A DNA stretch of 64,000 bases from a virus, in the IMG/VR virus record IMGVR_UViG_3300027974_000032, positions 1 to 64,000 of that record, one strand, 5' to 3'. A program made the translations under genes and the position numbers. The notes under the pieces were generated by a model, which made no database searches, was not told where the DNA came from, and saw nothing but the letters and a program-made list of their open reading frames with translations. This document shows, piece after piece, positions 9,499 to 59,052 of the stretch (position 1 is its first letter; each line of letters opens with the position of its first letter).

Positions 9499-9765
9499 TT
9501 ATTCAGCAAGGCGTTGATGTGTTCTTACTCTATGGCAATTAGCGCAAACTACTTCACACTTTTCTATCTCTTTTTTAATGGCTTTCCATGAAAAACCATC
9601 ATGTATCATTCTGGATATATTGTATTTTTTATCTCTTATGTGGTCAAAATCTAATATTATATGGTTTCCTATGCCACAGTCTACACAGCCAGAATCTTCC
9701 TTTATCTTAGCAAGCATCTTTTTATACTGCTGCTTATTATAATGTTCCAACTCTTTGTCAGTCAT
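9499..9765 (-). CDS. small HNH endonuclease
   Basis: CVDCG...LDFDH...CEVVCANCHRVRT; leaderless TATAAT-7-ATG. Confidence 0.85.
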   Translation of the reverse strand: MTDKELEHYNKQQYKKMLAKIKEDSGCVDCGIGNHIILDFDHIRDKKYNISRMIHDGFSWKAIKKEIEKCEVVCANCHRVRTHQRLAE

Positions 9766-9877: not shown

Positions 9878-9894
9878 AACATAATTGTAGCATG

Positions 9895-10005
9895 AAAAAT
9901 GAGCACTTTATAGACTTGCTCAGGTCCCCCAGGGTGCGACCCTGGGCGTATCCGTACTCAGCAATAAGGTCGCTTAAAAAGCAACTGCATGTATCATGAC
10001 GGAAT
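9895..10005 (-). ncRNA. putative structured sRNA B (four-way junction + hairpin + terminator)
   Basis: TATAAT at 10011-10016; UCCGU/ACGGA closing three hairpins; CCCAGGGU/ACCCUGGG; UGAGCA/UGCUCA-U5. Confidence 0.6.
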
Positions 10006-10433: not shown

Positions 10434-10489
10434 TTTATTCCCCTTTCAAGCGAATAAGTTAATTACCCCCCATTTGGGCAGGTAATAAT
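10434..10489 (-). promoter_or_regulatory. ROSE-like RNA thermometer in hsp20 5'UTR
   Basis: UUAUUCGCUU-GAAA-GGGGAAUAA pairs SD with UCGCU (bulged G); upstream second hairpin; TGCTATAAT at 10490-10498. Confidence 0.7.
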
Positions 10490-10501
10490 ATTATAGCATA
10501 G

Positions 10502-10534
10502 AAAAGCAGGCTAGTCAAATCACAACTAGCCTGC
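10502..10534 (-). terminator. rho-independent terminator
   Basis: GCAGGCTAGT/ACTAGCCTGC 10-bp stem followed by TTTT on minus strand. Confidence 0.75.
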
Positions 10535-10542
10535 CAATCTAA

Positions 10543-53637: not shown

Positions 53638-54128
53638 TAATTATTCACCTCATATATTGTACCATCAAGAATGACTCCTGCGTTTAAAATCTGAACTTCG
53701 ACAACTTCATCCTTTTCTAGATTTATTACATTTATCACTATATTTCCAGTTTCTGAATCTATGTAGACAATTTCTCCATTAGGTCCAGTTCCCACATTTG
53801 GGATCTTATTTTCTAGTTTAATTGGAAAATTTTTAAAATAGGCAGCAGATGTATTTTGAAGCGCCAAAACGTTTTGTGGATTATACTGTAGGTATAGGCT
53901 AGTTAAATTTTTGATTGGCTGATAAATAACATCTTGTCCATTAACCATGTCATTTCTACTAATGCTAATTAGTTCCTGGCCACCAATATTCTCAAAGATT
54001 AAATCAGTCATTACCTCAATTGGAACGACTGAGTCATCAAAAATAATTAGATCTGGTGTTGCTATCTTTACACTTGCAACTAGTAATGGATCTGCTCCTC
54101 CTGGAGCGTCTGGTGTTGCTAATACCAT
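53637..54128 (-). CDS. putative virion protein
   Basis: Tail operon, TAATG coupling. Confidence 0.55.
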   Translation of the reverse strand: MVLATPDAPGGADPLLVASVKIATPDLIIFDDSVVPIEVMTDLIFENIGGQELISISRNDMVNGQDVIYQPIKNLTSLYLQYNPQNVLALQNTSAAYFKNFPIKLENKIPNVGTGPNGEIVYIDSETGNIVINVINLEKDEVVEVQILNAGVILDGTIYEVNN

Positions 54129-57100
54129 TATGCTACCTCACTTAAATATACTGTCATTGATGGACCATTAAAATCTTTTGAGTGCTGGATATTGTAGATT
54201 ACATATCTAGAGTCTTCCTTGCCAGCCTTATTTACGCTATTTTGTGAATAATTAATTTTAACAATATCTCCAAGTTGCAATGTCGGAGTTGAGAAAATCT
54301 TAATACCAAATGATTTTCTTGGTTTAGTTATTTTAGATGTTACCCACTTCATAAGTTCGTTGGCATCATCTTCTGTCTGAATGTATGGAACATTTAAAGA
54401 AAAATCTTTTTTGCCATAAGTCATTCTACTAAGTTTAATATCTTCATATGCTTTTTCTATTTTAAAAGGAGAGGATATTAATTGGTTATTTTTAAACTCT
54501 GGATTTGAAAAATCGCTATTTTTTGAAAAATAATCATCTACAGTTAAGGAGTTTCTTGATTCTTGTGTAAAGGTTATTCCCTGAATTCTTAAATAGTTTC
54601 CAGTAGTTTCATCTAGGCTAAGTGCGGTATCTGTTGCATTGAATATCATAAACTCAGCACCATAAGATCCTGCTCTAAATCCAGAAACAGTATATCCTTT
54701 AATTCTGTTAAAAGTTGGTGATAACTTTGCATACAGAGCGGGGTACGCTTTATCATATCTAATATTAAAGGTTGAGGCTTCACGCATAATGGTACCAAAC
54801 TCTTCAAAATAAATCTTATACTCTGGAGGTTGATTTGGACTTATTCCAGATAGATAAGTTCCTTGTATGATTCCACTCATTGCATATTTTCTGAATGACT
54901 CATTTGCATCTATTTCTGCATCATCAAATATTGAGTTAACTGGTGTATCAAGAACAAACGATGTATTTTGGCTATAGTTATTTGTCAGTGCATAAATATT
55001 TTCAAACATAATTCTTGAAGATCCTCTTACGAACAAAGCCATATTATTATATACTGGAAGAGGAGTTGTATCATCAACGGTTGTAATTAATTTATTATTT
55101 ATATATAGGTAGAATCTTCTAATGTTTCCAATATCTTGATACTCTACAGATAAGTCGTATACCGTTGGATTTTGCTCAGAAGCCATCCTGTATTGACCTG
55201 TAAATTTTCCATCGTCTACAATAATATTGGACAATCCTTCCCAAAGTTTTACTGGAATAGCGTTACCTTCATTTTGCTCTATTTTATAAAATAAAATGTT
55301 GTTTACATTTGCAGACTCCAAAGAATTTAAATCAGTTGTACCTAATGCAACAATTTCAAAATAATATCCATTATTTGTTTCTGGATTAATCAGAACACCT
55401 AATCCACCAGAACCACCAGCAATTGTAATTGTTTGATCTGGTGTTGAGCCAGGAACTACATAATATGTTGAACTGCCAATGGCTGTTTGTCCACGATCCA
55501 TATTATTTTCTATTTTTCCAATAACTCTCATCCTTGTTCCAAAGTGCTTATATCTGTCATTTAATGGTTTCTTGACATATGATATAAAATCAAGAGGTGA
55601 TTCTGTAGTTGTAAATGATGGTCCATTCATTAATAATGCTGATGACTGTATTGTTCCAGTTTGAGTAACCCTCATATTTGCAACATCCGACTCAGTTGTA
55701 TAGTTAGATGACAAAAAGTTTCTGATAATTCCATTACGTGTAGTTTTTTCTGCAAGTGTTTTATTTATTCCAGCAGTACCAATTGATGTTGTTGGTGGTG
55801 TAAGACCATTTGTAAATAAGTATTTTGACTGCATCGTACAACCTTGAACGTTTTCATTATTTGACCAATAAGGGTCTAGGCCAGCAGAGTGTGATGTAAC
55901 TGGAGTTCCAAATTGTGCACGTCCATGTTTTGCAACTGCACCATTTTTAAGTCGTAGAGTTCCATTAACTTCTTCATAGTTTGGTTCAGAGTAGATACGT
56001 ACTAGTCCTGTTGGATAGATCTTTCCATTAAAAGGAAGTTTAGAAAAATAGTTTTCGTACTCTTGTACATTATTAATCCACACATTGCCATAGCCAGATA
56101 TATTATATTCAACTGCATCAAACTTTATAATCTCTCCATTTGAATAAAAGTATCCATTATATCTTGTAATCCAGTAAACTCCCTCTCCAAGATCCATAGT
56201 ATTGTTAATTAATCGATTACCAGATACAGTTGGAACGGATGCAGATAGGTTTGAATTTAATGGAATAGCGCTAAGCATATACGTTGACTGATTTCCTACC
56301 TGATTATTTACAGATTTTGTTGTAGAGGTACCACTAACTTCCCACAGAAGTACAGGCTTATATATCCATGTCTTTTCTGCATCAACAAGGTTTGCTTGTC
56401 TAATTGAGCCTATTGATCTTTGAATATATCTTGTTTCATAATTAATGACACCATCGTTATATACTGTTGTGTCCTGACCACTTATTTCAATTATGTTTGC
56501 ATTATTTGTATCACCATCTAAAACAAAATCTGTTGATCTTTCTGACTCTAAAGGCATAACGAAGTTTTTACTCATCATGACAAAGTTGTTATACTCATCA
56601 AAAAACATTGCTGTTTGTGTTGATACTGCTAGGTCTTGTAATATTTCTGCGACATTCTTATCTGGCGGTATAAAGAAATATGGAATAACAAGATCCTTTT
56701 CTCCATCAACTCTGTTAAAAGCATAGTTAGAAAATCCGATTGAATCAAGCAGTAGTGATACTGCTGCAGATAAAGATGTATTTGTTGATAGTATTTGTGG
56801 AGCAATTAATGATTCAAAATAAAAATATAAGTCTCTTAAACTAAGTTCAATCCTTTTTGATGAATTATCTATAGATGGAAATCCTTCTGAATACATAGTC
56901 TTAATTGGTACGTAATAATCATACCCACCAACATCTACAACTATTTCATAAAACTTAAACTGGATATGTCTTGAAATATAGTCCTTAATTATGCTATCTG
57001 CATTATTTGATTGAAAGGCATCATCATAATCAAAGAGTGTAACTGATCCAGTTGATGCAAGTAGTTGACTTACTGGCATTCCAGTAATGCCAAGGTCTGA

Positions 57101-58354
57101 TGCCATTTTTGTAACATTGTAAGAAGATGTCTTGTCTGAAAGGTTCACTGAAAGTCTTGGTGATAACTCTATCAAGTCAAAAGTTGCATCCACCTTGTTC
57201 ATTGTGTCTACCACGACCCTAATTCCAGAAATGTAATCTAGTTCACGATATACAGTTGAGTTGTCCGTAGTGCTTGTATACTTTAGTGGACTTGTTAAGT
57301 CTGTTACAAAGTTAGTTAGTCTTGTTACTGTTTCATCCTCTAGTTGCCACCCATATGTTGGGGTAAAGTTTTCGTACTCAGTTCCCGTCCAAATATAGTA
57401 TTTGCCTATGTCGGATTCATTTGCTGAAACTAAATATGCATACCCAGTTACAGATTTTTGTGGCAACCAGGAGACTGATGAGTGTGACTCTGCAAAAACA
57501 AAAGTATCTCTATACTTGTCTGGAATAATTAACCCATAAGAAAGTTCAACATATCCATCTGCTGCAATTACTGGATCGCCATTTTTTCTAGTTGATGATT
57601 GATTAAATGATAAAACATCCACCCAATTATTTGACTTTAAAGACTGAACCTTCCATCTTACTGGAGTTGTTTTATTAGCATTTCCATAAAATGGATCTGA
57701 AAATGTTGACGATGAGTTAGAAAATGTACCTAGGTCTAAACTTCCGACATTTGTTTGCATCTTAATAATAATCTTATTTGTAGGAATTTTATTTTCATAT
57801 ACAACAAATGGTGCTGAGTCTTCAATATTATATTGACCGTTAATTAACTTATTAGCAATACCATATTCCACACCACCCTCTGTTCTGTAAGATGACCAGT
57901 ACTTAAATTGATCATTTTTATCTGCCATATAATACCTTGGTCTTTTTGCCATATTTACATTAGAGTGGTGAAGATATGAATTAGAGAAATACCTTGCTTT
58001 GTTAATTCCTGATCTTGGTCTAAATGGTTTAAAGCAGTCTTCTAGAGAGTAGAGCATTTTAATTTTATCTTTTGTTGCCGTTAATGTAAATGGTACATTG
58101 CTGTCATCTATACCTCCATCAATAACAACATCTGCATCTGTCGCATTTGTATAATAATTGCCCTGATCATTTGGGTCAAAGGTGTTTGTAATTGTTTGAT
58201 AGTTTGACCCAGAAGTTGTAGGTCTATATCTATAGTTACCAATTTTAAATATATTATCTGGCATATTCATATTCCACTCTGCGATCACCGCAGATTGTGT
58301 TTTTACAACAGAAGATGTTTGTAAATGATTTTTTAGTTCATCATTTTTAAACAT
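54128..58354 (-). CDS. large minor tail / tail-tip protein
   Basis: About 1408 aa after TMP and distal-tail-like gene; LQLGDIV C-terminal motif. Confidence 0.7.
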   Translation of the reverse strand: MFKNDELKNHLQTSSVVKTQSAVIAEWNMNMPDNIFKIGNYRYRPTTSGSNYQTITNTFDPNDQGNYYTNATDADVVIDGGIDDSNVPFTLTATKDKIKMLYSLEDCFKPFRPRSGINKARYFSNSYLHHSNVNMAKRPRYYMADKNDQFKYWSSYRTEGGVEYGIANKLINGQYNIEDSAPFVVYENKIPTNKIIIKMQTNVGSLDLGTFSNSSSTFSDPFYGNANKTTPVRWKVQSLKSNNWVDVLSFNQSSTRKNGDPVIAADGYVELSYGLIIPDKYRDTFVFAESHSSVSWLPQKSVTGYAYLVSANESDIGKYYIWTGTEYENFTPTYGWQLEDETVTRLTNFVTDLTSPLKYTSTTDNSTVYRELDYISGIRVVVDTMNKVDATFDLIELSPRLSVNLSDKTSSYNVTKMASDLGITGMPVSQLLASTGSVTLFDYDDAFQSNNADSIIKDYISRHIQFKFYEIVVDVGGYDYYVPIKTMYSEGFPSIDNSSKRIELSLRDLYFYFESLIAPQILSTNTSLSAAVSLLLDSIGFSNYAFNRVDGEKDLVIPYFFIPPDKNVAEILQDLAVSTQTAMFFDEYNNFVMMSKNFVMPLESERSTDFVLDGDTNNANIIEISGQDTTVYNDGVINYETRYIQRSIGSIRQANLVDAEKTWIYKPVLLWEVSGTSTTKSVNNQVGNQSTYMLSAIPLNSNLSASVPTVSGNRLINNTMDLGEGVYWITRYNGYFYSNGEIIKFDAVEYNISGYGNVWINNVQEYENYFSKLPFNGKIYPTGLVRIYSEPNYEEVNGTLRLKNGAVAKHGRAQFGTPVTSHSAGLDPYWSNNENVQGCTMQSKYLFTNGLTPPTTSIGTAGINKTLAEKTTRNGIIRNFLSSNYTTESDVANMRVTQTGTIQSSALLMNGPSFTTTESPLDFISYVKKPLNDRYKHFGTRMRVIGKIENNMDRGQTAIGSSTYYVVPGSTPDQTITIAGGSGGLGVLINPETNNGYYFEIVALGTTDLNSLESANVNNILFYKIEQNEGNAIPVKLWEGLSNIIVDDGKFTGQYRMASEQNPTVYDLSVEYQDIGNIRRFYLYINNKLITTVDDTTPLPVYNNMALFVRGSSRIMFENIYALTNNYSQNTSFVLDTPVNSIFDDAEIDANESFRKYAMSGIIQGTYLSGISPNQPPEYKIYFEEFGTIMREASTFNIRYDKAYPALYAKLSPTFNRIKGYTVSGFRAGSYGAEFMIFNATDTALSLDETTGNYLRIQGITFTQESRNSLTVDDYFSKNSDFSNPEFKNNQLISSPFKIEKAYEDIKLSRMTYGKKDFSLNVPYIQTEDDANELMKWVTSKITKPRKSFGIKIFSTPTLQLGDIVKINYSQNSVNKAGKEDSRYVIYNIQHSKDFNGPSMTVYLSEVA

Positions 58355-59052
58355 TATGCCTCTTCCAGTGTTACAGAAACATTCCAAAAATCAAAATTAG
58401 AATTTCCACGTTTAACAACTGTATATGAAAAATCTGATATAAACATTTCTACAACTTGGTTATATTGAGATAGATGGCCATAGGCAGAATCATTTTTCCC
58501 AAATTCAGAATATTTATCATAAGCAAGATAAACCCAGAAAGATCCTTTATGGTTTTCATACCAATCTAAAAGTTCAACTCCTCCTGCACCACCATCAGTT
58601 GTATACTGCTGAGCAAGTATTGTTTGGTTTGGAAGAATAGCAAAACTACCATCTGAATCTGGATTTCTAGACCCAGTTGTTTCTAATGATGTTTTCCCTG
58701 TTGTAGAATTAAATTCTGGGGCAAGGGCGTGTGCTCTTGATGGCAACATGTTCCATGATGTGGATAGGGTTAGTTTATCTGCAGTATGATAAGATCTCAT
58801 TCTGCCATTAATCATTCTTTCACGCTTTTCTATTCTAACATTTTTAAGATCTAATTGTGACCTATTGTCATCTGAAAGAATTAAAAATTGATCTAACTTA
58901 TTTGGGTCAGATTCTGCTCCTGGGTCTGAGCCTATTTCTAAGCCATTTGGAATATAAAGACCATTAATTAGTGTTCCAGAATTTTCTGACCATAGGATTG
59001 CTTGTGGTCTTCCATATTTTTTTCTTCCATTCATATATCCTGTAGTTGCCAT
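58354..59052 (-). CDS. distal-tail-like protein
   Basis: Follows TMP; RMINGRMR...K...SW...WNVSVTLEE. Confidence 0.65.
   Translation of the reverse strand: MATTGYMNGRKKYGRPQAILWSENSGTLINGLYIPNGLEIGSDPGAESDPNKLDQFLILSDDNRSQLDLKNVRIEKRERMINGRMRSYHTADKLTLSTSWNMLPSRAHALAPEFNSTTGKTSLETTGSRNPDSDGSFAILPNQTILAQQYTTDGGAGGVELLDWYENHKGSFWVYLAYDKYSEFGKNDSAYGHLSQYNQVVEMFISDFSYTVVKRGNSNFDFWNVSVTLEEA

Follow-up and report, generated by a model that had tools for sequence, protein, structure and literature searches.

On the minus strand of the window analysed here, a stretch of 64 kb taken from the 75-kb IMG/VR virus record IMGVR_UViG_3300027974_000032 (69% complete), the end of an hsp20 gene is directly followed by a small non-coding RNA unit (10016-9895) which sequence comparison marks as genuine, widespread and so far uncatalogued, without a Rfam family and without a homologue in cultured phages. 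On balance, we consider it probable that this unit gives rise to an independently transcribed small RNA of ~110 nt, which has its 3' end in common with the hsp20 mRNA and acts in trans through an invariant core in its 5' domain. A role is known for only a few of the small RNAs encoded by phages, and in the large uncultured lake phages carrying the unit none is known to have been described. No paper describing it was found; a 2023 IMG/VR catalogue of 8,495 structured-RNA candidates (PMC10690425) may include it without naming it.

All the sequence elements listed in an earlier note on this DNA are present in the unit, while two of the structures into which they had been assembled, a four-way junction at the 5' end and a plain terminator at the 3' end, were not confirmed. 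The –10 promoter hexamer TATAAT (10016-10011) lies, as the note had observed, directly after the hsp20 stop codon (10019-10017), and its position predicts an RNA start near 10005 ± 2. It is followed by a 5' domain of ~54-55 nt (HP1, 10004-9951) with an almost invariant core, closed by the stem UCCGU (10003-9999)/ACGGA (9955-9951) and containing a hairpin of 6-7 bp with a variable triloop (9985-9969) and a variable 3-nt bulge (9968-9966). Next comes a GC hairpin (HP2, 9946-9928), of 8 bp in the window and of 5 to 8 pairs across copies, with a conserved UCGC-type loop; this hairpin, the closing stem and the three inner hairpins of the note can all be drawn on the minus strand. The 3' part consists of a covarying H-type pseudoknot (9927-9900), in which stem 1 is formed by 9927-9924/9915-9912, stem 2 by 9922-9917/9905-9900 (UGAGCA/UGCUCA) and loop 3 is A-rich, and of a run of five U (9899-9895), likely the 3' end of both the RNA and the hsp20 mRNA. 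An extended –10 promoter (9892-9884), belonging to the next structured RNA, marks the downstream boundary of the unit. The folding energy is weak by itself (z = –2.2 for the 127-nt fold, z = –1.3 for the 5' domain alone), and the case for the reality of the unit rests on conservation, not on thermodynamics. There is no conserved open reading frame, in agreement with the note: the two candidates, a 35-codon ORF on the plus strand (9892-9999) and a 7-codon mini-ORF on the minus strand, are broken in relatives by changes in loop length. Since these loop and tip indels are not multiples of three and shift the frame, the unit is taken to be non-coding on both strands, and coding readings of either strand were ruled out on the same ground.

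The minus strand is the coding strand for all genes around the unit. The upstream neighbour is hsp20 (10433-10017, minus strand; Pfam HSP20, E = 2.3e-18), and a terminator scan found no terminator-like site between its stop and the unit (10017-9928) except an internal hairpin; because no terminator intervenes, the hsp20 mRNA should read into the unit. Downstream, on the same strand, lie a second structured RNA, here called q1 (about 9877-9790), which has an 11-bp closing stem and corresponds to the "first RNA" of the earlier note, then a small gene of 88 codons, putatively of HNH type (9499-9765; ~130 nt downstream of the unit), for which the Pfam match is weak and unrelated, and also a ferritin/Dps-like gene. 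The q1 element, for which there were zero Rfam matches, is conserved in many loci, and a TACAAT-type hexamer always precedes it by 7-8 nt, located either after the pseudoknot of the unit or directly at the hsp20 stop. On the other side of hsp20, its 5' leader (10434-10500, minus strand) is highly conserved, is preceded by an extended –10 promoter with a good –35, and contains a 28-nt piece around the ribosome-binding site which recurs in about 58 of 80 hsp20 loci. Further upstream, between an 87-codon gene and the hsp20 promoter, a strong terminator-like hairpin of 13 bp (10505-10535, minus strand) gives a weak Rfam match to Chlorobi-RRM (23.7 bits against a threshold of 45). With a DnaE-type polymerase that shares 54% identity with its counterparts in large Streptomyces phages, the phage is probably a relative of actinophages; a search with hsp20 for a clue to the host returned a single distant bacterial relative (31%).

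The unit was found in at least 119 IMG/VR contigs, all from uncultured phages, by an exact 18-mer from the 5' domain. Among the matches listed, 55 to 62 distinct copies were examined, and it is on this sample that invariance was measured; copies were retrieved through 18-24 nt of the 5' domain, so that the 15-nt 3' half of the core played no part in their selection. A reciprocal scan anchored on this 15-mer led back to the same contigs, besides coding DNA without relation to the unit; none of the matches listed was a copy in which the 5' half had changed. The unit is single-copy in all five long records; two of these, 109 and 118 kb in length, are complete genomes that carry terminal repeats. 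No homologue of the locus was detected by blastn in 50,697 records of cultured phages, and an exact 24-mer of the core had no match in 185,579 bacterial and archaeal species genomes and so revealed no host copy or prophage. The linkage to hsp20 that the earlier note had remarked upon is real, as hsp20 flanks the unit in 51 of the 62 listed distinct copies: in 42 to 46 the unit is directly after hsp20, in 9 directly before the hsp20 leader, and in the rest elsewhere. What follows the unit in the 62 listed copies is q1 in 26, hsp20 in 9 and something else in 27. When the search is started instead from 80 IMG/VR loci with relatives of hsp20, the full unit is found in two of them and its 3' part in many.

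The 5' domain is the best conserved part of the unit, and conservation is thus not confined to the hairpin that had been taken for a terminator. In the alignment of 55 listed copies (A1), columns 8-33 and 48-62 are essentially invariant and make up a core of 41 nt; within the 15-nt 3' half of this core 14 of 15 columns are invariant and the mean pairwise identity is 0.97, to be compared with 0.70 for the final 120 nt of hsp20 and with 0.62 for the sequence downstream of the unit, while the hsp20 proteins beside the listed copies have a median identity of 50% to that of the window. Variation in the domain is limited to the hairpin tip, the 3-nt bulge and the linkers. The central hairpin has 6 bp and a triloop in 42 of the 55 listed copies, the loop triplet occurs in at least eight different sequences, and nowhere in the element is variation greater than at its three bases. 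Covariation is zero in the 5' domain, since nothing else there varies, and any fold drawn for it is a prediction. The helices of the 5' domain, of the GC hairpin and of the pseudoknot are specific to the minus strand owing to their G-U pairs; in the stem of the 5' domain, changes from U-A to U-G preserve pairing only in the minus-strand RNA.

The drawing of this domain as a four-way junction failed on its third arm (CUUA/UGAG). Arms 1 and 2 never vary, whereas in the third arm the 5' strand varies freely and the 3' strand is fixed: 22 of the 55 listed copies do not form pair 46-56 and 5 of the 55 do not form pair 47-54, without any compensation. The RNAalifold consensus is an irregular rod, with the 5' bases of the third arm forming a bulge, and for the copy in the window the rod and the cloverleaf are 0.8 kcal/mol apart (–12.6 vs –11.8 kcal/mol). 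The consensus model thus points to an irregular rod, rather than a cloverleaf, as the better drawing of the 5' domain. Searches of the unit against Rfam 15 gave nothing above the gathering thresholds (best match 17.7 bits against a threshold of 45), and the tRNA, tmRNA and YrlA models had no match at E up to 10. By eye, some likeness to a hammerhead and to preQ1-I was considered and rejected, as key core bases are missing and there is no Rfam match.

The GC hairpin covaries: at pair 72-82, 37 copies have G-C whereas 16 have A-U, which is a compensatory exchange, and further G-U changes occur. It recurs with other outer pairs in cassettes of a different type (type c, see below) and directly after the hsp20 stop in three loci (L036, L050 and L071). 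As for the 3' element, the stem UGAGCA/UGCUCA (9922-9900) and the five U which the earlier note had read as a terminator do exist, with a 6-bp stem and an 11-nt loop, and a simple terminator scan made no call on them; moreover, the U tract is not conserved, being absent, weak or a mixture of A, U and C in many listed copies. The loop of this stem pairs with the sequence upstream, and the comparison of copies indicates that the stem is part of a covarying H-type pseudoknot (9927-9900). In an alignment of 36 distinct copies (A2), gathered without any pairing condition on stem 1, this stem reaches 98.6% pairing, and 3 of its 4 pairs have changed in a compensatory way, as have 4 of the 6 pairs of stem 2; 0/500 shuffles reach the observed covariation, and slid controls are 23-40% paired. 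The common layout is a stem 1 of 3-4 bp, a single C, a stem 2 of 5-6 bp and an A-rich loop 3.

The pseudoknot is not restricted to the unit. Related genomes contain 3 to 10 copies each, mostly clustered, with a reversed control pattern giving 0, and in three loci (L004, L011 and L022) it stands alone directly after the hsp20 stop, all of which suggests a general gene-end element. A generic scan of the 64-kb window gave no further copies above the shuffled expectation; a pseudoknot-like candidate ~44 nt after the stop of a 1419-codon ORF (54055-54084, minus strand; ORF 54128-58387) has A instead of C as loop 1 and lies within chance expectation. In three of the related genomes four to six copies are clustered within 4-8 kb (G001:62352-66610, G002:57844-65099 and G005:6511-12545), and in G001 and G002 the clustered copies are on the strand opposite to the copy attached to the small RNA. 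In other relatives (L047:3415-3500, L055:3415-3500 and ~20 similar) the hsp20 stop is followed by a –10 hexamer, ~9 nt, the pseudoknot, a ribosome-binding site and an ATG; because this order recurs in many relatives, the pseudoknot can also sit at the 5' end of a message. A further arrangement, in which a long 3' UTR hairpin with an outer stem of ~10 bp and the pseudoknot follow the hsp20 stop without a promoter, is found at L025:960-1050, L034:3417-3500 and L040:3417-3500.

Of the proposal that the unit is a complete promoter-to-terminator unit in tandem with q1, the tandem position and, as a prediction, a promoter of its own are supported, and a plain terminator at the 3' end is not confirmed. 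TATAAT or TACAAT is found 6-8 nt ahead of the first stem in 59 of the 62 listed distinct copies, and this spacing is kept across three different upstream contexts. A –35 is absent from most listed copies, and in the window the –10 overlaps the hsp20 stop region. Actinobacterial promoters are usually without a –35. In one locus (L193) and in six similar copies the unit stands behind a complete promoter, with a –35, a spacer of 17 nt and an extended –10, and in L193 the gene upstream is divergently transcribed. Because the upstream gene is divergent and a full promoter is present, the unit cannot be a 3' UTR there, and this context argues that the unit needs a promoter of its own. In most listed copies a new –10 hexamer follows within about 10 nt after the pseudoknot.

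The space between the –10 hexamer and the pseudoknot holds several alternative contents across loci. Type a, as described above, occupies this slot in the window, in L002 and in others. Type b, which has the type-a closing stem, a different insert, a small hairpin and a further covarying stem, is found directly after the hsp20 stop in L001, L017, L027, L029 and L076, and as a second unit further downstream in L025, L034 and L040. Type c is found in L053, L006, L014 and L031, and as a second unit upstream of hsp20 in L029, while hybrids of a type-a 5' domain and a type-b-like middle domain occur in L100, L113, L116 and L145. In the remaining arrangements the slot is reduced to the GC hairpin and the pseudoknot, with no promoter or 5' domain (the three loci named above), to the pseudoknot only (likewise), or to nothing before q1 (L003, L015, L016 and L018). 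Between the window and L001, hsp20 is 97% and q1 92% identical, yet type b replaces type a: the 5' and middle modules differ, while the promoter and the pseudoknot stay common. From type b in so similar a background it follows that the slot exchanges cassettes between near-identical phages.

Some features of the alternative cassettes deserve mention in their own right. At the slot, type-b cassettes span L001:1340-1461, L027:3420-3546, L029:960-1081 and L076:3420-3546. Their extra stem covaries (C-G/U-G/U-A at one pair and A-U/G-U/G-C at the next) and encloses a T-loop-like hairpin, so as to resemble a tRNA acceptor/T-arm minihelix; ARAGORN at default settings made no call on type-b cassettes. 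Where type b forms a second, promoter-driven unit with its own pseudoknot, this is immediately next in L025 and more than 1 kb downstream in L034 and L040. Behind the hsp20 stop of L020, L038 and L039, a short GC-rich hairpin with a purine-rich loop separates the –10 hexamer from q1; in L031 this element is found inside a type-c unit.

With these data several explanations can be weighed. The earlier note had seen in the unit a tRNA-shaped mini-cloverleaf which serves as a decoy for host anticodon nucleases. A cloverleaf can indeed be drawn at no more than 0.8 kcal/mol from the best fold, seven tRNAs are encoded by the phage, and the central hairpin of the window copy lends itself to a drawing as a 5-bp stem under a U-rich loop of 7 nt, which may resemble the anticodon arm of a lysine tRNA. 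However, the comparative test went against it, with the third-arm pair broken without compensation in 22 of 55 listed copies and a rod as consensus fold; T loop and 3' CCA are absent, and 42 of the 55 listed copies have 6 bp and a triloop at the place of the supposed anticodon arm. ARAGORN, which the note had expected to be negative, made no call at default settings on all cassette types (14 sequences), and under relaxed settings its calls were scattered and mutually inconsistent; the Rfam tRNA and tmRNA models did not match either. A decoy of one anticodon loop should moreover conserve that loop, and because the loop that would mimic the anticodon is the most variable part, with its triplet in at least eight sequences, the tRNA decoy is disfavoured and we give it hardly any credence. 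Only marginally better is the idea that the unit is a conserved site at the DNA level, either one that the putative HNH endonuclease encoded close by would recognise or a recombination site kept uniform through gene conversion. The putative HNH-type gene (9499-9765) is close by, and the swapping of cassettes demonstrates recombination at the slot, but within the invariant block it is precisely the hairpin tip and the bulge that vary, the U-A to U-G changes of the stem pair only in the minus-strand RNA, and neither q1 nor the HNH gene follows the unit in 36 of the 62 listed copies, so that this explanation appears very improbable. An RNA which acts in cis on the RNA polymerase from a promoter-proximal position, like the put RNAs of phage HK022, and allows read-through of the pseudoknot and of later stops, would agree with the fact that the unit always starts directly at a promoter and has two stem-loops ahead of what may be a stop signal; invariance of the sequence would also suit a site bound by a conserved host enzyme. 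However, every downstream unit comes with a –10 hexamer of its own no more than ~10 nt from the pseudoknot, which makes read-through unnecessary, and the downstream genes vary by context (q1 26, hsp20 9, other 27 among the listed copies); no likeness to put was noticed in the sequence. We regard such an action as unlikely.

A greater, still minor, share of probability goes to the unit being a gene-boundary element in cis, that is, a structured 3' UTR of hsp20 and elsewhere a 5' leader, which stabilises, terminates or insulates without any separate RNA. No terminator lies between the hsp20 stop and the unit, and the hsp20 mRNA must therefore carry it as a 3' UTR; hsp20 flanks 51 of the 62 listed copies; the GC hairpin and pseudoknot, or the pseudoknot alone, occur without promoter and 5' domain in the loci named above; and the pseudoknot, in 3-10 copies per related genome, behaves as a general gene-end element. 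What such an element does not account for is the core, since a stabiliser needs structure and not an invariant sequence of 41 nt, and conservation is much stronger in the 5' domain than in the hairpin and the pseudoknot, to which that job would fall. Furthermore, the –10 hexamer travels with the unit to contexts without an upstream co-directional gene, the unit is found either before or after hsp20, and between near-identical phages the 5' domain is exchanged as a cassette. A purely cis role, a put-like action and a DNA-level site thus each fit the data less well than a promoter-driven RNA.

According to the favoured explanation, a promoter-driven small RNA, transcription would start at the –10-type promoter overlapping the end of hsp20 and run from ~10005 to ~9895 on the minus strand, ending at the same structured 3' end as the hsp20 mRNA. 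Firing of the promoter, an RNA end at the pseudoknot and action in trans are all predictions of this scheme. The 54-nt rod would be the working surface, binding a conserved macromolecule of the host or of the phage in trans; the covarying GC hairpin would form, with the pseudoknot, a module for stability or termination; and the H-type pseudoknot would define and shield the 3' end. The 41-nt core is fixed while the adjacent protein drifts to ~50% identity, which points to a nucleotide-by-nucleotide constraint, and such a constraint is typical of RNAs docking onto conserved machinery. As for partners, the best antisense target within the window is a 12-mer, at the level expected by chance, pairing with the hsp20 leader is no better than in 43 of 300 shuffles, and the 75-kb record (69% complete) yielded no TROVE/Ro protein, no CCA-adding enzyme and no RtcB. 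The swapping of cassettes within a fixed frame of promoter and pseudoknot is the pattern of arms-race loci, and it may be speculated, with considerable doubt, that the slot is a locus for exchangeable RNA cassettes, the 5' domains of which are trans-acting mimics or decoys directed against different conserved host factors or RNA-sensing defences. If true, this would be a new class of RNA-based phage counter-measure, with a common promoter and a pseudoknot as end-cap.

Among known systems, the unit can be compared with the small RNAs of the DapZ type in Salmonella and E. coli, which are of the 3' UTR type and are driven from a separate promoter that lies within the upstream gene or at its end. 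As in these RNAs, the predicted promoter overlaps the end of the ORF upstream, the 3' end would be common with the mRNA, and a highly conserved region, short in the DapZ type, goes together with a structured 3' end. The unit differs in that at least 41 nt are conserved instead of a short seed, a pseudoknot takes the place of a plain terminator at the 3' end, no Hfq-type host is implied, as the phage looks like an actinophage, and transcription of the phage unit is predicted. With tRNAs and tRNA-like structures it has in common a closing stem within which inner hairpins can be drawn, as well as tRNAs encoded nearby, whereas T loop, D loop and CCA are lacking and the GC hairpin lies outside the closing stem. 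Phage T4 produces abundant structured small RNAs, species 1 and 2 (rnaC/rnaD), among its accessory genes; these small stable RNAs lie within the tRNA cluster and are processed from tRNA precursors. The unit, too, is a predicted structured small RNA encoded by a phage among accessory genes, a likeness that is by description only; unlike the T4 species it has its own predicted promoter and is on the other strand from the tRNA cluster, all seven tRNAs detected by ARAGORN being elsewhere in the window and none at the unit. Finally, gene-end H-type pseudoknots close protein genes, whereas here such a pseudoknot would close a promoter-driven non-coding RNA; by tying a gene-end pseudoknot to the 3' end of a non-coding RNA, the unit offers a compact test case for termination versus exonuclease block.
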